Source of the DNA: an uncultured Chloroflexia bacterium
GTDB taxonomy: Bacteria > Chloroflexota > Anaerolineae > Anaerolineales > Anaerolineaceae
Reading direction: 5' to 3'
DNA: 32,000 bases
NCBI GenBank assembly: GCA_963704755.1
Contig: OY969938.1
Span: forward strand, 2,160,001 to 2,192,000
The notes beneath the pieces were generated by a model. That model searched no databases. It was not told the DNA's origin and saw only the letters and a program-made list of their open reading frames with translations. Numbering within the stretch: the stretch's first letter is position 1; every line of letters begins with the position of its first letter. Positions 5,615-29,724 of this stretch are shown here, one piece after another. A program made the position numbers and the translations under genes.

Positions 5615-7198
5615 ATGGATAAACTCACCTGGCAGCAAGCGCGCCAGCTAACCCCCGAAAAAATTGAGCCCGCCCGCGCGGTATTGGAAGCCATCCGCGA
5701 CGGGGCGGACGTATTTAAAACGATCCGCCATTATCCCCTGCCGGGAGGGGGCTACCTGGCCAAGTCAGTGCTGGTGGCGGTGTACGACCAGCTCGTCGCC
5801 AGCGGTGAATGGTCCCCTAACGAAGATCTGCTCGGCCGCATCCGCATGAAACCGGTGCGCACCCTATCGGGCGTCACCACTGTGACCGTGCTGACCAAGC
5901 CCTACCCGTGCCCGGGCAAGTGCATCTTCTGCCCCACCGACGTGCGCATGCCCAAGAGCTACCTGCCGGACGAGCCCGGCGCGGCCCGCGCCTTTCAAAA
6001 TGACTTCGACCCGTATGCCCAGGTCGCTTCCCGCCTGGAGTCGTACAGGGCCAACGGCCACCCGATCGATAAGATCGAGCTGCTCATCCTGGGCGGCACC
6101 TGGAGTTCCTACCGCCGGGATTACCAGTCCTGGTTCATCCAGCGCTGCTTCGATGCCATGAACGGGGTCAACTCGCAAACCCTGGCCGAAGCCCAGGAAC
6201 GCAACGAGACCGCCGAGCACCGCAACGTCGGCCTGGTGATCGAGACCCGCCCGGACGAGATCGACCGGCGCGAGATCATCTGGCTGCGCACCCTGGGGGT
6301 GACCAAGGTGCAAATGGGGGCCCAATCGCTGGACGACCGTATTTTAGCTTTGAACGAGCGCGGCCACACCGCCGCTCGGACTTTACAGGCTACCGCCATG
6401 CTGCGCGCAGCCGGTTTCAAGGTGGTGCTGCACTGGATGCCCAACCTGTTAGGCGCCACGCCTGAGTCGGATCGCGAAGATTTCCTGCGCCTGTGGGAGG
6501 GCTACTGCCCGGACGAGATCAAGATTTACCCTTGCCAGTTGCTGGAGGATACCGGCTTGTACGAACACTGGCAGCGCGGGGAGTACCGCCCCTACACCAC
6601 CCAGGAGCTGGTGGACCTGATCGCCGACGTCAACCCGGGCATCCCGCCGTATTGCCGGGTCAACCGCATCATCCGCGACATCCCCTCCACGCATGTGGTC
6701 GAGGGCAACAAGCGCACCAGCCTGCGCCAGGACGTGATGGCCGAACTGGCCCGCCGCGGACAGGAATGCGGCTGCATCCGCTGCCATGAGGTCCGCGGCC
6801 AGCAAGTGGACCCGAGCGACCTGCGCCTGGAAGATTACATCTACCCGGCCGCCAGCGCCGAGGAACATTTTCTGCATTACCGCACCCCGGATGGCAAGAT
6901 TGCCGGCTTTTTACGCCTGTCACTGCCCCAACCCGGCGCTCCCGAACTGGGACTGGCCGATCTGGAAGGCGCTGCTTTGATCCGCGAAGTGCATGTGTAC
7001 GGCCAATCCCTGCACGTCGGGGCCGACCAGGCCGGGGCCGCCCAACACAGCGGCCTGGGCACACACCTGCTGGAGCGGGCCGAACAGATCGCCCAACAGG
7101 CGGGCTTCCGGCACATGGCCGTCATCGCCGCCATTGGCACCCGGCGTTATTATCAAGACCGGGGGTTCCGTAAGGGGGAACTGTACCTAATTAAGTGA
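5615..7198 (+). CDS. elp3: Bacterial Elp3 homologue: radical-SAM / GNAT tRNA U34 carboxymethyl-modification enzyme
   Basis: 527 aa. Radical-SAM cluster CPGKCIFCP, a central radical-SAM barrel (ELLILGGTWS, VGLVIETRPD), a Cys-rich CGCIRC segment, and a C-terminal GNAT part (REVHVYG ... GLGTHLLERAEQIA). Confidence 0.9.
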   Translation: MDKLTWQQARQLTPEKIEPARAVLEAIRDGADVFKTIRHYPLPGGGYLAKSVLVAVYDQLVASGEWSPNEDLLGRIRMKPVRTLSGVTTVTVLTKPYPCPGKCIFCPTDVRMPKSYLPDEPGAARAFQNDFDPYAQVASRLESYRANGHPIDKIELLILGGTWSSYRRDYQSWFIQRCFDAMNGVNSQTLAEAQERNETAEHRNVGLVIETRPDEIDRREIIWLRTLGVTKVQMGAQSLDDRILALNERGHTAARTLQATAMLRAAGFKVVLHWMPNLLGATPESDREDFLRLWEGYCPDEIKIYPCQLLEDTGLYEHWQRGEYRPYTTQELVDLIADVNPGIPPYCRVNRIIRDIPSTHVVEGNKRTSLRQDVMAELARRGQECGCIRCHEVRGQQVDPSDLRLEDYIYPAASAEEHFLHYRTPDGKIAGFLRLSLPQPGAPELGLADLEGAALIREVHVYGQSLHVGADQAGAAQHSGLGTHLLERAEQIAQQAGFRHMAVIAAIGTRRYYQDRGFRKGELYLIK

Positions 7199-7673
7199 TA
7201 CAGTGATTCGGTGATACAGTGTTTCAGTGTTGCAACAAATAGTCTCAGGGGGCGGTTTCAAGTGTCAGGTGTCAAGTGTCTGGATTTGTGATATTTCAGG
7301 CCAGCCTAAATTGGCTTCGGCTTTATTTTATGTAATCGCCGTAAACTACCCAATTTTACCAGCCCATCGTTTGTCAAGTTCCTGACAACCATGGCTTTCT
7401 TAAGAAAAGGTTTGTTACTGCGAAGGCAGCGTTTTTTGCTGCCTGTGGCAATCTCAATGCCAGTGTTGCCGAAGGCACCATGCCCTGGTGCGTAGCATGC
7501 CCCTTGATCAAGAAGCGGCCAGGGCTCGCAATGACAAAGTTCCTGGTTTTGTCAAGTGAACATGAGAAAACCATAACCTGACATCAGGCACTTGACTTGA
7601 CACTCGACACCTGACACTTGAAACCTGACACAATTCACTGAAACACCCAAACACAGTAAAACCGTATCACTGG
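7197..7673. repeat. Composite element: imperfect inverted arms of CAGTGNT/GTGTCAG heptamer-like words flanking a ~290-bp core
   Basis: The left arm (7197-7282) reads gatacagtgattcggtgatacagtgtttcagtg...tttcaagtgtcaggtgtcaagtgtc. The right arm (7577-7673) carries the reverse complements (gacacctgacacttgaaa, cactgaaacac, tatcac). The core is homologous to that of the element at 15816-16058. Confidence 0.8.
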
Positions 7674-7697
7674 TTTATACACAATTCTGATACAAAA

Positions 7698-7725
7698 TTG
7701 ACGAATTTTCGCTATGATTTAATAG
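7698..7725 (+). promoter_or_regulatory. Candidate promoter for the M50 protease gene
   Basis: TTGACG (7698-7703), 16-nt spacer, TAATAG (7720-7725). The match is weak. Confidence 0.3.
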
Positions 7726-7839
7726 GTCGTTAATTATCGAAACCTATAATAGGGTTTAGCTGGTTGAGTTGAAGACGTGACCGCACGCACACGAACGGCG
7801 GTCTGAGAGGCTCACCACTTTGGAGAAAGGATAGAGGAC

Positions 7840-8964
7840 ATGAGTTGGTCCTGGAAGATTACCCGTGTCGCGGGGATTGACCTCAAAATCCACGTGACCT
7901 TTTTACTGATTCTGGCCTGGTTTGGGATTAGCTATTACGTCACCGGGGGCACGATCGCCGCCGCAATGGTGGGGATCGCATTTATCCTGGCGGTTTTCCT
8001 GTTTGTCATCCTGCACGAACTGGGTCACGCGCTGACCGCGCGCAAGTTCGGCATCAAAACCATCGACATCACCTTGCTGCCCATCGGTGGGCTGGCCCAC
8101 ATCGAAAAGATGCCGGATAAACCCATCGAGGAATTCTGGGTAGCAATCGCCGGCCCGGCCGTCAATTTTTTCTTTGCCGTAGCCTTCGGGGCTGCCATCG
8201 CGCTGAGCGGCAGTCTGAGCAGTCTTACTCTGGCCAATATCTTCTCGCTCAACAGCACTTCCTTCCTGGGACAGTTGGCCGCGGTCAACCTGTTCCTGGG
8301 ACTATTCAATTTGATCCCGGCCTTTCCCATGGACGGCGGGCGCATCTTGCGCGCCCTGCTGGCCACGCGCATGCCGTATGCCCGTGCTACCCGCACGGCC
8401 GCCCGCGTCGGCCAGGGCATCGCCTTCCTGTTTGGCCTGATCGGCCTGTTCACCGACCCGATGCTGCTCTTCATCGCCTTCTTCGTGTACATCGGCGCGG
8501 CAGCCGAGGCCAGTACCGTCGAGACCAAGTCGGCCTTGAGCGGCGCGACCGTTTCCAACGCCATGTTGACCGAGTTCCATTCCCTCAGTGAAGGCGACCC
8601 GCTTTCGCACGCCATCAACCTGATCATGAGCGGCTCGCAGGCCGAGTTCCCGGTGCTTTCGGGTGAACGCGTGGTGGGCATACTCACCCGCAAGGGCCTG
8701 ATCGAGGCCATCCGCCGCCTGGGTGAACGGGCACCCGTTTCGGCCGCCATGGAGCGCAACTTCGAAGCGGTGAATACCGCCGATCCGCTCGAAACGGTTT
8801 CGGGCAAGCTGCAATCGCATGAGTACCACACCCTGCCGGTCATTGCCGACGGGCAGTTGGTTGGGCTGATCACTATGGAGAACATCGGCGAGTATATGAT
8901 GATTCATTCGGCCCTGGAGAGCTCCAAGCAGACCCCGCCCAGCGCCTGGCCGATGCCAAGATAA
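7840..8964 (+). CDS. Site-2 protease family (M50) zinc metalloprotease with C-terminal CBS pair
   Basis: HELGHAL (HExxH), NLIPAFPMDGGRILRA (LDG-type motif) and several TM helices. The C-terminal ~140 aa have a tandem CBS-like pattern (FPVLSGERVVGILT, LPVIADGQLVGLIT). Confidence 0.9.
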   Translation: MSWSWKITRVAGIDLKIHVTFLLILAWFGISYYVTGGTIAAAMVGIAFILAVFLFVILHELGHALTARKFGIKTIDITLLPIGGLAHIEKMPDKPIEEFWVAIAGPAVNFFFAVAFGAAIALSGSLSSLTLANIFSLNSTSFLGQLAAVNLFLGLFNLIPAFPMDGGRILRALLATRMPYARATRTAARVGQGIAFLFGLIGLFTDPMLLFIAFFVYIGAAAEASTVETKSALSGATVSNAMLTEFHSLSEGDPLSHAINLIMSGSQAEFPVLSGERVVGILTRKGLIEAIRRLGERAPVSAAMERNFEAVNTADPLETVSGKLQSHEYHTLPVIADGQLVGLITMENIGEYMMIHSALESSKQTPPSAWPMPR

Positions 8965-9618: not shown

Positions 9619-9671
9619 CCGAATTTGAGATGTTTACGAGGGCTTCGCCTTCGCAAACATCTCAAATTCGG
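9619..9671. repeat. Long hairpin (25-bp arms, 2 imperfect pairs) with GCTTCGC apex
   Basis: ccgaatttgagatgtttacgagggc-ttc-gccttcgcaaacatctcaaattcgg. The arms are homologous to the hairpin at 12019 and to the half-sites at 27837 and 28179. Confidence 0.9.
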
Positions 9672-9722: not shown

Positions 9723-10547
9723 ATGGGTACCATCTTTGCACATCCTCTCACGGACACATTCGCCCGCCTGGCCGGGCTCAACAAACGATACCCGCCCCTG
9801 GTGCTGACTTCACCCACCGAGCAGGAGGGCTGGTTTCCTGTCGCCGGCCTGCCGGCCCAGGGCAATGCCCGCATGGTCACAGCCCTGGACAACTATCGCA
9901 TGGCCCACCCGGCCAGCGACAACCTGGCGCCGGCTTCGCGCTGGTTTGCCGGCTACCTCAACGATTTGATGATCGTCGTTTTCGGCTGCTACCTCAGTGA
10001 CCAACGCCTGCCGGACCTGCGCCCCGAGCAAGTCTGGGTGCGCTTCGATCCGCATGGTGAAGTGGCCGGCCTGGCCTGGCCCGGTGCGCAAGTGAGTGGG
10101 TTGGCCGAAAACAATAACGTTACGTTATCCTATGGTGTCGTCCTGGATACAATCGACGCTTTACGCGAGCACTTGCAAGATGAATTGATCCGCCACCTGG
10201 AGCCGGTCAGTGAAGCGCTGGCCGCCAGCTCGGTCTTTAAAAAGCCGGCCATCTGGGCCCTGGCGGCTGACTATGTGGCCAAGACCATGCAGTGGACCGC
10301 TCGCCTGTTGGGAGATGAATTACTGGGTATCCAGGAGGCGCGCCTGGTCAATGCATCGGTCTCTAAACTGCACCGCAACCGGGGTTTCATCGAAGTCGAA
10401 GGCCCTTCCGGGCCGATCTATTTCGTCGAACGGGCGGCCTGCTGCCAGAAACGCTATATCCTGGGGAAGACCAACTGCGCCACCTGCCCTAACCGGCCCC
10501 TGGAGGAGCGTATCGAGATGGCCAGGGGGAAGGCGGAGAAGGAATAA
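9723..10547 (+). CDS. FhuF-like siderophore-iron reductase / (2Fe-2S)-binding protein
   Basis: 274 aa. The C-terminal CCQKRYILGKTNCATC matches the C-C-x10-C-x2-C motif characteristic of FhuF. Confidence 0.7.
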   Translation: MGTIFAHPLTDTFARLAGLNKRYPPLVLTSPTEQEGWFPVAGLPAQGNARMVTALDNYRMAHPASDNLAPASRWFAGYLNDLMIVVFGCYLSDQRLPDLRPEQVWVRFDPHGEVAGLAWPGAQVSGLAENNNVTLSYGVVLDTIDALREHLQDELIRHLEPVSEALAASSVFKKPAIWALAADYVAKTMQWTARLLGDELLGIQEARLVNASVSKLHRNRGFIEVEGPSGPIYFVERAACCQKRYILGKTNCATCPNRPLEERIEMARGKAEKE

Positions 10548-10637
10548 GGTGACGAGGCAACAAGTAAAGAGGCAATGAGGTGACAAGGCAACCAGGTAGG
10601 AGGGCAATAAGGCGGCGAGGCAACCAGTGAAGAGGGG
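10546..10637 (+). repeat. Purine-rich GAGGCAA/GGTGAC word array between convergent genes
   Basis: aaggtgacgaggcaacaagtaaagaggcaatgaggtgacaaggcaaccaggtaggagggcaataaggcggcgaggcaaccagtgaag. It uses the same word set as the arms at 5324-5576 and is dense in TGA/TAA/TAG on the + strand. Confidence 0.8.
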
Positions 10638-10640
10638 GCA

Positions 10641-11789
10641 CTATTCCTGGATTGCTTTTAATATCTCGTCCGACTGGTAAATGCGGTTGCGGGCTTTACC
10701 GGTGATTTCGCGCAGCACGCCGGCATGCTCGAGTTTTTCTATGTAGTCAACGGCGGTTTTGAATGGGATACCCAATCCATCGGCAACTTGACGCGCCGAC
10801 AATATTGGCCGGGAGAAGGTAAAATCGATCAACTTCCCCATGCGGTCCGGGTTCCGGTCGGCTTTTACGATGGCTTGCTGCTGCTCATGCATTTCACGCA
10901 GGTGTTCCATCCGGCCGACGCTGCCCCGGGCCTGCTCGCTGATGCCGCGTAAAAAGAAGCGCAGCCAGGGTTCCCAATTCCCTTTTTGGGAAACCGCCAT
11001 CAATAGGTCATAATATTCCTGCCGGTAGTGTTCGATATAAACGCTCAAATTGAGCAGCGGCCGAGAGAGCAGCCCCCATTCGTGCAGCAAAACCGTGACC
11101 AGCAGACGTCCGACCCGGCCATTACCATCCAAAAAGGGGTGGATGGCCTCGAATTGGTAATGGATCATCCCAATCCGCACCAGCGGTGGAACCTGCGTCT
11201 CAGCATGGATAAACGTTTCAAGTGCAGCCAGGGCCTGGTGCATCTCATCCATGGGCGGCGGTACATAGGGTGCGTCAGAGGGGGTGCTTCCGGCCGGGCC
11301 GATCCAGTTCTGGCTGCGCCGGAATTCGCCGGGAATCAACGCGCCGCCGCGTACGTTTTTCATCAAAATCTCGTGCAGCTCGCGGATCAGGCGCAAACTG
11401 AGTGGCAGTGTTTTGAGCCGCTCCAGGCCATAATCCGTGGCCTGGACGTAGTTGTAAACTTCACCCACTTCGTTGGCCGTTTCGAAAAAAGAAAGTTGGG
11501 TCGTTTCGTATGCATAAAGATCCGCCAATGAAGAACGTATGCCTTCGATGCGCGAGGATAGCACCGCCTCATTGCGGACAAACGGCTGGATCAGCAGACG
11601 CGGGAAGGGAAAGGTATTGGCCAATGTAGAAAGCCGGCTCAAATCCCGCACGGCCTCCGCCAGGGCGGAAACCAGGGGCAGCGACCAGCCCAGGTCCGGC
11701 GGCAACGGTTCCGGAATGAATGTCCAGAAGCCACCCCGGGCTAAGGCGGGCCTGCCCGCAGCCCGGTTTTGAAAACTTTTAGGATCCAT
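10641..11789 (-). CDS. Fic/DOC family protein (class II: N-terminal inhibitory helix, C-terminal winged-helix)
   Basis: Fic core HPFLDGNGRVGRLL. SSRIEG fits the (S/T)xxxE(G/N) auto-inhibitory motif upstream of the core. The C-terminal ~70 aa look HTH-like (ARQVADGLGIPFKTAVDYIEKLEHAGVL). Confidence 0.92.
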   Translation of the reverse strand: MDPKSFQNRAAGRPALARGGFWTFIPEPLPPDLGWSLPLVSALAEAVRDLSRLSTLANTFPFPRLLIQPFVRNEAVLSSRIEGIRSSLADLYAYETTQLSFFETANEVGEVYNYVQATDYGLERLKTLPLSLRLIRELHEILMKNVRGGALIPGEFRRSQNWIGPAGSTPSDAPYVPPPMDEMHQALAALETFIHAETQVPPLVRIGMIHYQFEAIHPFLDGNGRVGRLLVTVLLHEWGLLSRPLLNLSVYIEHYRQEYYDLLMAVSQKGNWEPWLRFFLRGISEQARGSVGRMEHLREMHEQQQAIVKADRNPDRMGKLIDFTFSRPILSARQVADGLGIPFKTAVDYIEKLEHAGVLREITGKARNRIYQSDEILKAIQE

Positions 11790-11816: not shown

Positions 11817-11905
11817 TGTAAATAAGGTCCTTTTATATTAACACTTTTGGCTCTAAATGTAAATAACGGAGCGTGTAATTTACACCTTGACCATCAAATG
11901 TAAAT
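11817..11905. promoter_or_regulatory. Four TGTAAAT/TGTAATT boxes, two embedded in palindromes (candidate operator cluster)
   Basis: Boxes at 11817-11823, 11858-11864, 11874-11880 and 11899-11905. GTGTAA-T-TTACAC (11873-11885) and GTAA-A-TTAC (11900-11908) are perfect palindromes. They lie in the Fic/NurA divergent intergenic region. Confidence 0.4.
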
Positions 11906-11954
11906 TACCTGGCCCGCATATAGAGCCAGGCTACAGGTCACAGGCGATCTTTTC

Positions 11955-11983
11955 TTGCCCTACCCTGCCAATTCCGCTATAAT
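11955..11983 (+). promoter_or_regulatory. Candidate sigma70-type promoter for the NurA-like operon
   Basis: TTGCCC (11955-11960), 17-nt spacer, TATAAT (11978-11983). Confidence 0.5.
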
Positions 11984-12018: not shown

Positions 12019-12066
12019 AATTTGAGGTGTTTGCGGGTGAAGATTCGCCCGCAAACACCTCAAATT
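12019..12066. repeat. Hairpin of the CCGAATTTGAGRTGTTTGC arm family, located in the predicted 5' UTR of the NurA-like gene
   Basis: aatttgaggtgtttgcggg-tgaagattc-gcccgcaaacacctcaaatt, a 19-20-bp stem. It is the only family member with a larger loop. Confidence 0.85.
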
Positions 12067-12098: not shown

Positions 12099-13289
12099 AT
12101 GCCGGTCAATTACGCCCAGGTCCAACAGAAGATTCGCGAAAAGAGCGGGCAAGCCCGCACCCGCCAGGTAGAGGCGCGCCAGAAGCTCGAACGCGCCTGC
12201 AACTTGCTGCGCGAACAGGCCGGCAACCTGGACGAGCTGCGCGCACGGGTCAATGCCCTGGCGGCCCGCGAGCGCAACCTGCGCTGCGCCGTTCCGCTGG
12301 ACGAGAACCTGGACACGGCCCATCTGGCCCCTGTGCCGGAGGAATACCCCCACCTGCTGGCCGCCGATGGCTCACAAATCAACCCGGACCGGCACAACCC
12401 GGTCGAGTTTGCCCTGGTCAACCTGGGCATCATCCACATGACGCCGGGCAAGGCCCAGGTTCCGGACGAAACGGTCCACACCCAGCTTTTCCTCTACGAC
12501 GATGTGGAAAGCAGCCACGGGCCATTAACCGAAGAACAGGTCGCCTTACAGCGCGACCTCGAAGAGCGCCAGGTGCTGGCCGACATGGCCGCCCGCCTGC
12601 CCGGCCTGCTGCCGGTATTGACCCTGACCGATGGCCCCCTGGAGCTGTACCGCGAGCCCAAAGAAAACCGCGCCTTCGAGGAGGCCTTCAAGCAATACCT
12701 GGACGTTTTGGAGCGCATGGCCGGCACCAATGTGATCGCGGCCGGCTACGTGGATAAGCCCGCCAGCGATCTGGTGGTGCGCCTGCTGGAGCTGGCGCTG
12801 TATAAACCCGAGCAGCTTGAGCAGGCCAGCCAGGAGCGGCAGCTCTTTGGTGTACCCGACCGGACCTTGTTCGCCGGCCTGCTGCCGCCGGGGGCGCGCA
12901 GCGCCTTGTTCGCCATCCAGTCCAGCGGCGCCGAGCGCTTCCGCACGCGCAGCCAGGGATTGAGCCCCTGCTTTTTCTACCTCAACGTGGGCCGCGAAAA
13001 TTATCCCTGGCCGGTACGGGTCGAAATTCCCCTATGGGTTGCGCGCCACCCCCCAATGGTGGATTTGCTGCACGCTACCTTGCTGCAGCAGTGCCGCCAG
13101 ATGGGCGCCGGGAGCTTTCCATATGCCCTGCACCGCGCTCACGAGATCGCGGTGGTTTCGTATCAGGATGCCCAACAGGTGCAAACCCTGATCGAACTGG
13201 AATTGCGCCGGCTGGGCCTGGACGTGGGCGACAAATCGTACAAACAATCCGCAAAAGACCTGGAGGGCCGCACGGTTTATAAAGCATGA
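12099..13289 (+). CDS. NurA-like nuclease domain protein
   Basis: Start trimmed to the ATG at 12099, because the track start at 12027 is a GTG inside the palindrome. LLAADGSQINP (DGS motif), LTLTDGPLELY, AAGYVDKPASD and FPYALHRAHEIAVVS follow the conserved NurA motif order as I recall it. Confidence 0.65.
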   Translation: MPVNYAQVQQKIREKSGQARTRQVEARQKLERACNLLREQAGNLDELRARVNALAARERNLRCAVPLDENLDTAHLAPVPEEYPHLLAADGSQINPDRHNPVEFALVNLGIIHMTPGKAQVPDETVHTQLFLYDDVESSHGPLTEEQVALQRDLEERQVLADMAARLPGLLPVLTLTDGPLELYREPKENRAFEEAFKQYLDVLERMAGTNVIAAGYVDKPASDLVVRLLELALYKPEQLEQASQERQLFGVPDRTLFAGLLPPGARSALFAIQSSGAERFRTRSQGLSPCFFYLNVGRENYPWPVRVEIPLWVARHPPMVDLLHATLLQQCRQMGAGSFPYALHRAHEIAVVSYQDAQQVQTLIELELRRLGLDVGDKSYKQSAKDLEGRTVYKA

Positions 13290-13897
13290 ACGCGATCGAA
13301 ATTGGACGCCTGTTAAGGGCCGGTACGACCGGCTGTGTGATCGGCTGCCGGGTGACGCAATTGAGCGTCCCGGCCTTCGGCGGGATGGTGCGTATCCCCC
13401 TGGAAGACGGCAGCCAGGTCTATGGCCTGATCCACGACATTCACATCGACGACGACGGGCTGGTGCGCCAGTTGGTCACCGCCGGCGAGGTCAGCGAGGA
13501 CGTCCTGCTCGACAACCGCGTCAACCGCAACGTCCCGGTCGAAATCGAAGTTATTTTTATCGGCTACGAGAGCGATGGCCGGCTCAGTCACCTGCTGCCG
13601 CCCCGCCCGCCGCTGACCCTGGACAAGATCTTTACTTGCGACGATGCGGAAATCGTGCGTTTTACCGCTGCCGGCCGCTTTGGCTACTTCCGCCACGTGC
13701 TGCGCAACACCGACCTGCCCCAGGGCGAACTGCTGGCGGCTCACTTGCAGCAGGCCCAAGAGGCCCAGGCCAGCCTGGGCGATTCGGACTGGGGCCGCCG
13801 GGCCACCCAGGAACTAATCACCCTGCTGCGCGATGATTACCCCACCTTAATGAGCGTGCTCAGCGCCGTAGCGGATGGCGGGTTGTTTGTGGAGTAG
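13286..13897 (+). CDS. Hypothetical protein resembling an isolated HerA N-terminal HAS-barrel domain (no ATPase domain)
   Basis: ATGA overlap with the upstream stop (13286-13289). The beta-rich pattern IGRLLRAGTTGCVIGCRV...GGMVRIPLEDGSQVYGLIHDIHIDDD...VEIEVIFIGYESDG...LDKIFTCDDAEIVRF resembles HAS-barrel sequences. There is no Walker A motif. The CDS itself is confident; the fold assignment is tentative. Confidence 0.5.
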   Translation: MNAIEIGRLLRAGTTGCVIGCRVTQLSVPAFGGMVRIPLEDGSQVYGLIHDIHIDDDGLVRQLVTAGEVSEDVLLDNRVNRNVPVEIEVIFIGYESDGRLSHLLPPRPPLTLDKIFTCDDAEIVRFTAAGRFGYFRHVLRNTDLPQGELLAAHLQQAQEAQASLGDSDWGRRATQELITLLRDDYPTLMSVLSAVADGGLFVE

Positions 13898-13948
13898 CAA
13901 AAGTCCAACGCGACTTACACAAGACATAAATTTTCATATTCATTCAAT

Positions 13949-13983
13949 ACTAAAAGCTAAGAGCTAAAAGCTAAACGCTATTC
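13949..13983 (+). repeat. Phase-exact GCTAA heptamer array (5 units)
   Basis: ACTAA at 13949, GCTAA at 13956, 13963 and 13970, and GCTAT at 13977, a spacing of exactly 7 nt. It lies just upstream of the DMT gene. Confidence 0.85.
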
Positions 13984-13996
13984 GCTCTTCCTGCTT

Positions 13997-14011: not shown

Positions 14012-14917
14012 ATGAACTCCAAGCGGACCCTCATCATCCTCACCACCCTCTTCGCGGTTATTTCCTGGGGAGCATCTTTTATCGCCACCAAGATTGCGCT
14101 ACGCTATGTGCAGCCCTTCACGGTGGTGTGGGTTCGTTTTGGTATTGGGGTGGTGATATTGGGGATCGCGGCCATTGCCCGCGGGCAGATCCGCCAACGG
14201 CCGGCGGCGAACGACCTGCTCTATTTTGCCCTGTTAGGCGCTCAGGGGATCACCTTCCACCAGTGGCTCCAGTCCAGCGGACTGGTCACCAGCCAGGCCA
14301 CCAGCACGGCCTGGATCGTCGCCACCACGCCGGTATTCATTGCCCTGCTGGGTTGGATTTTTCTCAAAGAGCGCTTTGCGGTCCTGCGTTGGGCCGGCAT
14401 CCTTTTGGCTGCCCTGGGGGTACTGCTGGTGGTTGCCCACGGCGACCTGAGCAGCATCTTCCGCGGCGGGTTTGGCGAGCCCGGTGACCTGCTCATTCTA
14501 ATCAGTGCGCCCAACTGGGCCATTTTCACCATCCTATCCCGCCGGGGCCTGAGTTGTTATCCGGCTGCGTTGATGATGCTGTACGTCATGGTCTTTGGCT
14601 GGCTGTTCACGTCGATCTTCTTCTTCAGCGGTCCCGGCCTGGCCGACCTGGCCCGCCTGCGCCTGGACGGAATCCTGGCGCTGCTCTTCCTGGGGATCTT
14701 TTGCTCGGGCCTGGCCTATATCTTCTGGTACGACGCGCTGCAGGCTCTGCCGGCCGCCCAGGTCGGCGCTTTCCTCTACCTGGAACCGTTGATCACGGTC
14801 CTGGTAGCCGGCACCATATTGCTGGAGCCGCTCTATTGGAGCACCTTGATCGGTGGCGTGATTATCCTGGCCGGGGTATGGCTGGTCAATCGCCCGGCTC
14901 AGCGAGCCGGCGCGTAA
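14012..14917 (+). CDS. DMT-superfamily (EamA-like) transporter
   Basis: 301 aa with ~10 predicted TM helices in two similar halves. ISWGASFIATK and the overall pattern are typical of EamA domains. Confidence 0.88.
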   Translation: MNSKRTLIILTTLFAVISWGASFIATKIALRYVQPFTVVWVRFGIGVVILGIAAIARGQIRQRPAANDLLYFALLGAQGITFHQWLQSSGLVTSQATSTAWIVATTPVFIALLGWIFLKERFAVLRWAGILLAALGVLLVVAHGDLSSIFRGGFGEPGDLLILISAPNWAIFTILSRRGLSCYPAALMMLYVMVFGWLFTSIFFFSGPGLADLARLRLDGILALLFLGIFCSGLAYIFWYDALQALPAAQVGAFLYLEPLITVLVAGTILLEPLYWSTLIGGVIILAGVWLVNRPAQRAGA

Positions 14918-16800: not shown

Positions 16801-17206
16801 AATCCCCCCTGCCCCCCTTTCCCAAGGGGGGAAAAACCCAGTAGATCCTTGGATAAGGAGATCAGGACCAAAAATTTACCCCTTTTTCAAGGGGAAAAGC
16901 CAAACCCAGTATAAGTCTTGAATCAATGGAAGTACGGTGAGCCTGGAAGCACCCCCCTTTCTCAAGGGGAAAAGCCAAACCCAGTATAAGTCTTGAATCA
17001 ATGGAAGTACGGTGAGCCTGGAAGCACCCCCCTTTCTCAAGGGGAAAAGCCAAACCCAGTATAAGTCTTGAATCAATGAAAGTACGGTGAGCCTGGAAGC
17101 CTTTCCTTTCTCAAGGGGAAAAGTCAAACCCAGTTAAAGCCTTGAATAATGAAAGTACGGTGAGCCCGGGAGCACCCCCCCTTCTCAAGGGGGGCCAGGG
17201 GGGATT
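16801..17206. repeat. Tandem array of a 74-75-bp unit (~4.3 good copies plus one degenerate copy), each unit carrying a CCCCTT-loop-AAGGGG hairpin
   Basis: The unit landmark ctcaa/ttcaa recurs at 16886, 16961, 17036, 17110 and 17184. The units at 16951-17100 are almost identical. The unit is ...cccctttctcaaggggaaaagccaaacccagtataagtcttgaatcaatggaagtacggtgagcctggaagcac. Confidence 0.92.
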
Positions 17207-25351: not shown

Positions 25352-25435
25352 GATGGTGGGTTACGGGCATAACCCGGTTTACCACGCCGGCCTTTGATTC
25401 ACCGGCGCAATCGATGAGCCCTCCACCCACCCTAC
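25352..25435. repeat. Diverged right half of a double-stem element (GGTGGGT variant)
   Basis: gatggtgggttacgggcataacccgg ... gagccctccacccaccctac. The same gatggtgggttacggg word occurs at 25021-25036. Confidence 0.55.
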
Positions 25436-25437
25436 AA

Positions 25438-25477
25438 GCTAAGCGCTAAAAGCTAATCGCTAAACGTTACCAGCTAA
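25438..25477. repeat. Phase-exact GCTAA heptamer array (TTAGC in the sense of the minus-strand gene) containing that gene's stop codon
   Basis: GCTAA at 25438, 25445, 25452, 25459 and 25473, with a variant GTTAC at 25466. CTA at 25474-25476 is the TAG stop of the minus-strand CDS 25474-27033. Confidence 0.9.
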
Positions 25478-27033
25478 TGGCTTGCCGGCTTCCGGGGCGC
25501 ATCGGGCACATAAATAAACAGATCACCCTGGCGGTAGATCGGTGTGTAATTATCCACAATGGGGATGCTGACGTAATGCACCCAGGCGTTCTCTTCCGGG
25601 GCCAGGATGTCGGTTTTTACGTCGCGGGTGTCGTAATACTGGCCGGTCGCGATGATCAAGGCATAATCATGGTTATAGATATGGTCGTTGAAAGTGTTCA
25701 GGTAGGCGGTCTGGTTAGCCATGATCATTTCCATCAGGATCACCTTGTCGTACGGCAGGTACAGGTTGGCTTGGGCCTCCTTGAATGCCAAAAGGTCGCG
25801 ATAATCCAGGAAAAGGACCGGCTTGCCCGACAGGCCGTAGTTCCGGATGATCGTCTGGACTACCCGGTCGTCGATATGGACCGGCGCGGCAGTGGCCGGC
25901 TTGTTCATGAACCCCACGTAGAACAAGGGGATCAGCACCACAGCCGTTTGCCAGGCCAGCCTGGCCGGGCCGGCAAATATCGGCCCGGCCGGAAGGTCAT
26001 GATCGGGACGAAAGCGCTCCAGGTAAACATAAAAAGTGATCACCAGCAGCAAGAGGAAAAAGCCATCCAGGTTGTGCAGGTTGAAGGTGCCCCCGATGCG
26101 CATGCTGACCAGCAGCCCGCCCGCGCCAAAGGCTGCCAGCGCCAACGCCAAACCCACCAGGCGCAGCCAGACATAGCCGCGCCACTTACGGATTACAAAA
26201 CCGGCCAGGAAAACCAGAAAAGGGGCAGAAAGGAGCAGCAACCCGCCCAGCACCCCCAGTGGATAGAAGTTATTGGGCAGCAGGCGCAGCGGCCAGAAGG
26301 AATAGTTATAGCGCGGGTCCAGGGCCAGCATTGGGTCAGCACTGGCCCGGGAGTATACCAGGTAGCTCCCCAGGGCGGCGATGCTTCCGCCGGCAGCCAG
26401 CCCCAGCGGATGCCGGACGTAACGCATCCTGCTTTGCTCGCCCTGCTCCTGCTCCAGCAAAAACAGGCAAGCCGCCAGGACCCCCGGCAGAGGGAACCAG
26501 TTGATCCGGCAAATTCCCTCCCACAGCGAGGCCAAAATCACCACCAGGTACGTGCGGGACATCTTTTTGCGGTCGAATAAAGCCAGCACCAGGATAGGCC
26601 CCAGGAGCAAATGGTAATAAATCGGGCCGGCTTCGAAGATCAGCACGCTAAAAAGCACCAGCGCCAGCCCTTTTTTCCAGGAAATCGGGCGCAGCCGGCG
26701 GACCAGCGCCACGGCCGTGGCCAATGGCAGCAGCAGGCTGAGAACCTGCACCCAGGCGCGGAACAGGATCAAGGAAGCGTTGGGCAGCAAGAAGACCAGG
26801 CCATCCAGGAGCGCCCGGCCAGGGTCCAGCACCGGCCAGGCCGGTCTGGCGCCATATACTACCGGTGCAAAGATCATCGACGCGTCGAAGATGTGGCTGA
26901 ATTCAGACCAGGCCTCGGGGCTGTCGCTCGAGTTGATCGCCGCCAGGTGGTAGCTGAGAATAAAGACATACCCGGCTGCCAGCGCAAGGGCCAGTAAATA
27001 TTTAAAAAGGGTTTCTTTGGTTATTCGCTTCAT
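25474..27033 (-). CDS. Large multi-pass membrane protein with C-terminal soluble domain (possible GT-C-type glycosyltransferase; function unknown)
   Basis: 519 aa. About 11 hydrophobic helices occupy the first ~390 aa, followed by a ~130-aa soluble tail. The ATG at 27033 is preceded by aggcttcctttt (RBS-like aaggaag on the coding strand). No catalytic motif was recognised. Confidence 0.7.
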   Translation of the reverse strand: MKRITKETLFKYLLALALAAGYVFILSYHLAAINSSDSPEAWSEFSHIFDASMIFAPVVYGARPAWPVLDPGRALLDGLVFLLPNASLILFRAWVQVLSLLLPLATAVALVRRLRPISWKKGLALVLFSVLIFEAGPIYYHLLLGPILVLALFDRKKMSRTYLVVILASLWEGICRINWFPLPGVLAACLFLLEQEQGEQSRMRYVRHPLGLAAGGSIAALGSYLVYSRASADPMLALDPRYNYSFWPLRLLPNNFYPLGVLGGLLLLSAPFLVFLAGFVIRKWRGYVWLRLVGLALALAAFGAGGLLVSMRIGGTFNLHNLDGFFLLLLVITFYVYLERFRPDHDLPAGPIFAGPARLAWQTAVVLIPLFYVGFMNKPATAAPVHIDDRVVQTIIRNYGLSGKPVLFLDYRDLLAFKEAQANLYLPYDKVILMEMIMANQTAYLNTFNDHIYNHDYALIIATGQYYDTRDVKTDILAPEENAWVHYVSIPIVDNYTPIYRQGDLFIYVPDAPRKPASH

Positions 27034-27836: not shown

Positions 27837-28196
27837 CCGGAATTGAGGTGTTTGCAATGAGAACGCCACCTTAACCCCTCAGTTCGGGAATTCTTTAACT
27901 TGAGCCTGAGTAGTAAAAGTCTTTGGAAAGAATCGATTGAACAGTTGTAACTACTCAGCTACTGCAGAGGATTAGGGTGTTTTTATTATTTTTTGCGCGC
28001 TTCGCGCGCAAAAAATAATAAAAACACCCTCACCTTGCGCACTTGCCTGAGCACTTACGAACAGTTAATCATTATCCATGTTTTTGGATCGGCGACAAGG
28101 GTAAAATAAACATTCTGTTTGTTCGGTATGTACAGAACATACAGAAACAGCTATACTATATTTGCGGTATGGGAACCCGCAAATATCTCAAATTCG
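27837..28196. repeat. Split palindrome: left and right arms of the CCGAATTTGAGRTGTTTGC family separated by ~320 bp
   Basis: The left arm is ccggaattgaggtgtttgc (27837-27855). The right arm is gcaaatatctcaaattcg (28179-28196). The interval contains another long hairpin (27974-28030) and the GbsR-type gene's upstream region. Confidence 0.5.
27974..28030. repeat. Long perfect hairpin (27-bp stem, TTC loop) with GCTTCGC apex
   Basis: agggtgtttttattattttttgcgcgc-ttc-gcgcgcaaaaaataataaaaacaccct. The arms are exact reverse complements. Confidence 0.92.
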
Positions 28197-29452: not shown

Positions 29453-29467
29453 CTGTTAGCTGTTAGC
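29436..29467 (+). repeat. Phase-exact TAGC heptamer array (5 units) containing the hydrolase stop codon
   Basis: TAGC at 29436, 29443, 29450 (the TAG stop), 29457 and 29464. The last five codons (IAFSC) are array-encoded. Confidence 0.92.
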
Positions 29468-29724
29468 CCGTAGGTTGGGTTGCGGGCTCTATCGCAACCA
29501 TGGCGATTGGAAAGAATGTATAAAAGCCCAGGCTCCGCCCGTAACCCAACAGCCCGTAGGTTGGGTTGCGGGCTCTATTGCAACCATGGCGATTGGAAAG
29601 AATGTATGAATGCCCAGGCTCTGCCCGTAACCCAACAGCCCATAGGTTGGGTTGCGGGCTCTATTGCAACCAAGGCGATTGGAAAGAATGTATGAATGCC
29701 CAGGCTCCGCCCGTAACCCAACAG
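29467..29724 (+). repeat. Three tandem 86-bp copies of the left half of the double-stem element
   Basis: (g/a)tagg starts at 29470, 29556 and 29642. The unit is gtaggttgggttgcgggctc-N37-gcccaggctc(c/t)gcccgtaacccaacagccc. Confidence 0.92.

Follow-up and report, generated by a model that had tools for sequence, protein, structure and literature searches.

NurA, a nuclease, and HerA, an ATPase, are treated, to our knowledge, as a two-protein resection machine, and all solved complexes of the two that we know of are binary. HerA–NurA of archaea is usually encoded with Mre11–Rad50, and HerA ATPases recur in defence systems as well. The HAS barrel (PF09378) is the N-terminal barrel common to HerA and the F1-ATPase subunits. 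The closest system described is that of Deinococcus radiodurans (7F6D), where a NurA nuclease and a hexameric HerA, composed of a HAS barrel and a RecA-like core, are encoded in one operon, and the NurA dimer uses its basic face to bind an acidic patch (D78/E80/D81) in the ring of HAS barrels of HerA (PMC9960219). The same two enzyme families make up the archaeal complexes (Sulfolobus 4D2I; Thermococcus kodakarensis 9X1L), and in the defence systems SIR2-HerA (8WOD/8WLD), DUF4297-HerA (8ZIQ/9C1M), and TdpAB (8WET) the HerA hexamer has effectors assembled on its N-terminal face. Here, a nurA gene and the gene overlapping it, which encodes a 203-amino acid (aa) protein designated X, were analysed in a window from an uncultured Anaerolineaceae bacterium of the Chloroflexota (assembly GCA_963704755.1, contig OY969938.1, positions 2,160,001 to 2,192,000), the window being the whole 32-kb stretch of DNA. 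We propose that the two genes are probably the displaced part of a three-protein NurA–X–HerA system, and not an orphan module.

The HerA protein listed for this genome (P0124) has the domain set of Deinococcus HerA, on the HAS-barrel face of which the Deinococcus NurA docks. Unlike in Deinococcus, a conserved third gene, X, lies here between nurA and herA and is coupled to nurA, the NurA protein is divergent and carries a basic helical N-terminal extension, and the operon is split in the genome studied. The archaeal HerAs are matched by the structural model of X; unlike the archaeal loci, the neighbourhoods of nurA–X–herA that were examined contain neither mre11 nor rad50, and X has no archaeal counterpart in the literature searched. 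The HerAs of the defence systems are likewise among the best matches of X, but those are two-gene systems without a free-standing barrel or NurA, and the locus described here is without the defence hallmarks tested for. With the HAS-barrel family X shares the fold and a weak hidden Markov model match in the expected register, whereas the HAS barrel of the HerAs found here is N-terminal and fused to a P-loop ATPase, and X, a free-standing protein, includes an additional helical domain and falls short of the family threshold. No third NurA–HerA component and no HerA or NurA of Anaerolineae is described in the literature searched, a scope outside which the original FtsK–HerA comparative-genomics paper lies. 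What is new here is the proposed third, HAS-barrel-like subunit of an otherwise known NurA–HerA machine, a subunit that probably docks NurA.

The NurA protein

The two genes and their junction are as follows:
12099..13289, plus strand: nurA, gene for a NurA-family nuclease of 396 aa (open reading frame scan and Pfam PF09376)
13286..13897, plus strand: X, gene for a 203-aa acidic, HAS-barrel-like protein (open reading frame scan, AlphaFold2 (AF2) model, and Foldseek)
13286..13289, plus strand: ATGA, overlapping stop and start codons of nurA and X (read from the sequence)

A preliminary description of this region, made from its sequence, had reported two co-directional coding sequences overlapping in ATGA, the first with the motif order of NurA. 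Both observations are borne out, with the first open reading frame (ORF) counted at 396 aa instead of 397. Its translation holds all four motifs named at that time, LLAADGSQ, LTLTDGPLE, GYVDKPASD, and FPYALHRAHEIAVVS, and a profile search recovers NurA: the Pfam family PF09376, the curated cut-off of which is 21 bits, is matched with 66.4 bits (E 3.5e-18) over profile positions 3–254 of 254. The longest ORF in this frame opens earlier, at GTG 12027; the start codon ATG 12099 is preferred because 27 orthologues begin MPVNY... at that ATG. The same 27 orthologues, down to 30 % identity, show no variation at residues D90 (AADGSQ), E156, and E349 and almost none at D178 (TDGPLE), D219 (YVDKP), and both H345 and H348 (ALHRAHE). 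These conserved acidic and histidine residues match the active-site motifs expected of the nuclease and represent its putative catalytic set. By profile and motifs, ORF 12099–13289 encodes a NurA-family protein.

Residues 1–85 form a basic extension with an isoelectric point (pI) of 8.8 and a long predicted helix. A single-sequence model of NurA had a predicted local distance difference test score (pLDDT) of 40, and only the part containing the N-terminal helix was confident. Comparison with the sequences in the PDB, by phmmer and by profile, returned no solved NurA and only spurious matches to a kinesin coiled coil and to homeodomains; as judged from these searches, the sequence has diverged too far for any solved NurA to be reached with it.

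Protein X and its family

An AF2 model of X built with 34 homologues (pLDDT 82, predicted TM-score 0.80) contains a beta-barrel at approximately residues 9–117, followed by a C-terminal helical domain of five helices (residues 120–197). In a Foldseek comparison of this model with the PDB, 50 of the 50 matches listed are HerA chains, each with probability 1.00, at E 4.5e-5 to 2.4e-3 and with about 130 aligned columns. They come from seven different HerA systems, including HerA–NurA of Sulfolobus, Thermococcus, and Deinococcus as well as SIR2-HerA, DUF4297-HerA, and TdpAB. A viral structure library, used as a negative control, gave nothing at E <= 1e-3. Alignment of the X profile with that of the cognate HerA family by hhalign gave E 0.04 (0.003 when a wider range of X sequences entered the profile), in a constant register that places X 11–55 on HerA 10–62 with a common YGL(I/V)xD(I/L) strand. 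It is this alignment that places X on the N-terminus of HerA, Foldseek giving HerA chains without the matched residues. The Pfam HAS-barrel profile aligns X residues 22–57 to its positions 16–56 of 90, and the three weak sequence signals share one register.

The preliminary description had proposed that the second protein resembles the HAS barrel and has no ATPase domain. At the level of the fold this proposal holds, because the AF2 model matches the listed HerA chains, with no alternative fold among them, and the hhalign and Pfam registers are consistent. Neither a Walker A pattern nor a match to PF01935 (DUF87) is present in X, and its 203 aa are too short for an ATPase; by sequence, therefore, X is no HerA. 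As modelled, it is HAS-barrel-like by fold and stands outside the curated family PF09378. Coincidental likeness of a generic small beta-barrel, which would have an unrelated role in a shared operon, is in our judgement very improbable: the HAS-barrel sequence evidence is sub-threshold and the TM-scores are modest (values below), but all of the listed PDB matches are HerA from independent systems while the viral library gave none, the weak sequence signals agree on the register, and gene order and coupling are kept to ~30 % identity.

X is acidic (pI 4.75; family median 5.2). Its conserved motifs include DIHIDDDGLVRQL, the most conserved, DNRxNRN, and LPPRPPL, of which the form LPPxPPL is almost invariant; the acidic motif DIHIDDDG is invariant. 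Comparison with NCBIfam and PADLOC yielded nothing relevant and no curated family. Proteins of the X family have neither a Pfam nor an NCBIfam family and are called "hypothetical" wherever they are named by their source. The family is large: X matches more than 6000 clusters at 90 % identity, the best 120 of which are 68–100 % identical and include, as named sources, Bellilinea, Levilinea, Longilinea, and Anaerolineaceae. At 50 % identity there are 560 clusters, nearly all of them free-standing proteins of ~200 aa. At least 572 confirmed stretches encoding X were found in species-representative genomes.

Gene order in related genomes

The gene neighbourhoods of X were surveyed in the best 80 species-representative loci of these at least 572 stretches, and the counts below refer to assessable loci. 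All names among these 80 are of Chloroflexota, mostly Anaerolineales and Anaerolineaceae. NurA is encoded immediately upstream of X on the same strand in 71 of 72 loci, and a 4-nt overlap between the nurA stop and the X start is present in 42 of 79 (40 ATGA and 2 GTGA), so that homologues of the two genes co-occur and their coupling, suggested earlier from the window, extends to relatives. HerA is encoded downstream of X on the same strand in 53 of 64 loci, within 100 bp in 40 of the 53 and behind an insertion of 0.5–2.5 kb in the other 13. Wherever nurA and herA are neighbours in these relatives, X stands between them; in the window they are not adjacent. A 76 %-identical relative (L003/L004) encodes NurA of 396 aa, X of 207 aa, and HerA of 571 aa (DUF87) in translationally coupled genes. 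The same order was found in L091 and L092 and in a distant X subfamily (L093–L098; 28–40 % identical to the window X), and the translational coupling on both sides of X is retained to ~30 % identity. The gene order nurA–X–herA is apparently the ancestral as well as the majority arrangement, and vertically inherited in Anaerolineae, as read from these comparisons.

Mean identities to the window proteins across the 80-locus survey are 67.5 % for X, 69.7 % for HerA, and 45.3 % for NurA. X is thus conserved like HerA, and NurA far less, which fits a protein constrained by several interfaces.

HerA is missing from the downstream flank of X in 11 of the 64 loci. In 8 of these 11, X is 71–75 % identical to the window X, near the top of the range, and the nearest relatives of the window (L007–L010; X 83–85 % identical) likewise have the nurA–X pair without herA.

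Several observations on individual loci were made in the survey. Small, apparently selfish genes have inserted repeatedly between X and herA (L021, L031, L038, L040, L047, L048, L051, L056, L065, L074, L078, L079, L085, and L091). The insert in L001/L038 and L091 was called as PF05635 (23S_rRNA_IVP); other inserts, read from their translations, are GxxExxY/PD-(D/E)XK-like or GIY-YIG-like, and L056 has a putative methyltransferase/restriction pair. One metagenome-assembled genome (SMAG_U7858) has two X-bearing contigs (L014 and L027), each with an X 66 % identical to that of the window; either the system is duplicated there or the bin is mixed. In L074 (8822-10600; MFD02979.bin.2.70), NurA and X form a single ORF of 592 aa. 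This was not accepted as a natural NurA–X fusion; it is probably an assembly frameshift or indel, as the normal C-terminus of NurA is intact in another frame. NurA and X are also in one ORF in the metagenomic representatives P0282, P0266, P0357, and P0369.

HerA and the split operon

The preliminary description had found no HerA nearby and suggested that the pair could be a minimal or split NurA–HerA derivative lacking the ATPase. For the window itself the first statement is correct, since no HerA-like sequence occurs in any frame of its 32 kb (best tblastn E = 1.5; Pfam on large ORFs). A search with an operon-encoded HerA as the query, however, identified P0124, a 79 %-identical protein of 571 aa with PF01935 and PF09378, an intact Walker A motif (GATGTGKS), and a HAS barrel of its own. 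P0124, the window X (P0001), and the window NurA (P0391) are listed with the same longest contig of 4,871,623 bp and the same sources (NCBI and ENA), and therefore the genome encodes an orthologous HerA outside the window. The cognate full-length HerA is encoded in this genome, outside the 32-kb window, as placed indirectly by this shared contig.

The location of herA in genomes with the split arrangement was compared with that in an intact locus:
L099-L101 7001-10655 and L003 10621-16300: herA and downstream DUF212, xseB, and xseA (opposite strand), in the split and intact lineages

Where the operon is split, in a Bellilinea lineage, herA is by itself and is followed by DUF212, xseB, and xseA; in the intact locus L003, the same three genes are likewise downstream of herA. 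As herA keeps its xseAB neighbours in the split lineages, it was herA that stayed and nurA–X that moved as a unit, and the joint movement suggests that X is tied most closely to NurA. A simple deletion scar at the window was considered and rejected, because the EamA gene beside X in the window and the one that follows herA in L091 are not orthologues (35 % identity across 119 aa).

With these data, a minimal module of NurA and a lone barrel working without any HerA ATPase is largely refuted, and we give it hardly any credence. The window without HerA and the 11 of 64 related loci without an adjacent HerA are what it would predict, but an orthologous full-length HerA has the same 4,871,623-bp contig listing, nurA–X–herA is the majority and ancestral order with the distant subfamily included, and the split genomes keep herA in its old neighbourhood. 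The orphan derivative of the preliminary description is accordingly replaced by a displaced pair, which probably belongs to a conserved three-protein system.

A different role for X is suggested by the joint movement. X could be a regulator or decoy: as a mimic of the docking barrel of HerA, it would cover the face of NurA that binds HerA and so keep the nuclease inactive, or stabilise it, up to its transfer to HerA, which would be of particular use in genomes with separate transcription of herA. In line with this, nurA and X stay and move together while herA can sit elsewhere, X is similar to the domain with which Deinococcus HerA binds NurA and shares the acidity of that surface, and HerA retains its own barrel, so that a bridge is not obviously needed. 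In most genomes, however, X is tightly coupled to herA too, through overlapping or near-overlapping stop and start codons, and its HerA-like conservation suggests that more than one of its interfaces is constrained. We regard such a decoy as unlikely, though not fanciful, and retain docking of NurA as the preferred function of X.

Repair versus defence

The preliminary description had left open whether the pair serves repair or defence, and had considered a small accessory module. An anti-phage system of HerA plus an effector, resembling SIR2-HerA, DUF4297-HerA, or TdpAB, would employ NurA as its effector, with X in an accessory role. Several facts are compatible with it: defence HerAs are among the nearest structural matches of X, P0124 matches HerA models of PADLOC, some genomes have small selfish genes and a restriction-modification-like pair inserted at the X–herA junction, and in Longilinea arvoryzae (L001 3574-7393) a Gabija-like pair, consisting of an OLD-family ATPase/TOPRIM nuclease and a UvrD-like helicase, is encoded ~1.4 kb upstream of nurA. 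On the other hand, NurA and X match 0 families of PADLOC-DB v2, and P0124 matches only the generic HerA models, over the ATPase core. Defence islands are typically patchy and fast-evolving, whereas X occurs in at least 572 stretches, and the nurA–X–herA loci are flanked by metabolic and translation genes (guaA, thyX, ABC transporters, and asnS). Repair is favoured over defence because of this strong conservation, the housekeeping flanks, the partial synteny with xseAB (exonuclease VII), the ordinary GC content of the locus, and the missing PADLOC match of NurA and X. We consider the defence system improbable, and the accessory or defence module of the earlier account is not upheld; of its two options, the evidence favours repair. 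A horizontally acquired island was discarded on the GC content and the flanking genes.

Proposed mechanism

The reading that we prefer, and hold to be probable as a whole, is that the pair is the NurA–X portion of a conserved three-component NurA–X–HerA system in which X docks or adapts NurA and which serves housekeeping repair. The ATGA overlap would let X be made in step with NurA. X would bind NurA and, as a docking or adaptor subunit, link the NurA dimer to that face of the HerA hexamer which the HAS barrels form, and by analogy with Deinococcus the acidic surface of its barrel, e.g. DIHIDDDG, would meet a basic surface of NurA. The pI values, 4.75 for X and 8.8 for the N-terminal extension of NurA, are in keeping with this analogy. 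The NurA–X–HerA complex would then perform ATP-driven resection of DNA ends, in housekeeping repair rather than in anti-phage defence. The most likely function of X is, on this analogy, to bind NurA as the docking or adaptor subunit in a resection machine of three components.

Several points weigh against this proposal. HerA has its own HAS barrel, which leaves an additional barrel unexplained. The Foldseek TM-scores normalised to X are modest, ~0.42, and cover ~130 of the 203 residues; the match of X to PF09378 is sub-threshold at 14.7 bits (cut-off 25.2; E 0.034), and the hhalign probability for X and HerA is at most 11 %. The placement of P0124 in the same genome is given by the shared value of 4,871,623 bp for the contig, not by coordinates. 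Finally, L060 is the one assessable locus without NurA upstream of X; in this locus (7158-8945), the gene upstream of X is cation-diffusion-facilitator-like, as judged from its translation.

A more specific version can be put forward tentatively, as a possibility that we think more doubtful than docking as such. X may have arisen by duplication of the N-terminal barrel of HerA and become an obligatory third subunit, forming a ring or collar of its own that mediates between NurA, a dimer with two-fold symmetry, and HerA, a hexamer with six-fold symmetry, in a Chloroflexota-specific class of three-component resection machines. Such a ring or collar would explain why nurA–X can be encoded apart from herA.

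Upstream region, flanking genes, and repeats

Further features of the locus are the following:
11955..11983, plus strand: sigma-70-like promoter candidate TTGCCC-N17-TATAAT (consensus scan; 10/12 positions match)
12019..12066, plus strand: palindromic hairpin in the 5' untranslated region of nurA (fold computation; arms of ~22-23 nt)
10641-11789, minus strand: Fic/DOC gene, the upstream flank, divergent from nurA (Pfam)
14012-14917: gene for an EamA/DMT transporter, the downstream flank (Pfam)

The flanking Fic and DMT transporter genes named in the preliminary description were thus recovered by Pfam, and the promoter and hairpin it had noted are present. The promoter candidate lies in the divergent Fic/nurA intergenic region; 5 such sites occur in the region versus 0.8 expected. 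The hairpin is strong (folding free energy -45.6 kcal/mol, z = -5.1), but it was found upstream of nurA in none of 6 relatives in which it was sought. Its arm recurs in the window, in a palindrome at 9624-9666 and a partial copy at 28176-28192, and the consensus AATTTGAGrTrTTTGCGGG has 5 matches in the window versus 0.08 expected. The repeat family so defined includes 2 full hairpins in separate intergenic regions and a partial third. On these grounds the hairpin was not accepted as a conserved riboregulator or operator acting on nurA, the element being missing in 6 relatives and related palindromes lying in other intergenic regions; it is a member of a dispersed palindromic repeat family similar to repetitive extragenic palindromic elements and probably not a specific feature of the system. 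It could conceivably affect local mRNA stability.

Other elements were noted in the window. At 11855-11908, in the Fic/nurA intergenic region, there are three copies of TGTAAAT(TAC), which alternate in orientation and among which is the inverted repeat GTAATTTACA/TGTAAATTAC. These copies overlap with weak promoter-like sites and may serve as an operator for the Fic protein, which bears a helix-turn-helix. Two long intergenic tandem repeats are located at 16879-17192 (75 bp x 4.2 copies, 92 % matches) and 29465-29724 (86 bp x 3.0 copies, 95 % matches). Shorter ones are found at 10543-10636 (intergenic, 31-32 nt x 3, after a FhuF-like gene) and, of the CTAAAAGCTAA type, at 13940-13985, just 3' of X, and again at 25432-25464. 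An ORF of 519 aa (25474-27033, minus strand) has no Pfam family at E <= 1e-3.

Conclusions

For annotation, the locus teaches that a seemingly orphan NurA in a short window is no ground for assuming independence of HerA. The analysis assigns a functional context, lineage-specific and with a mechanism that we infer, to a large family of unannotated proteins. It also poses a structural question, namely how a free HAS-barrel protein would fit between a dimeric nuclease and a hexameric motor. If the proposal is true, a third subunit that is conserved like the motor and resembles the NurA-docking domain would mean that a large class of bacteria, abundant in the environment, assembles or regulates the NurA–HerA machine differently.

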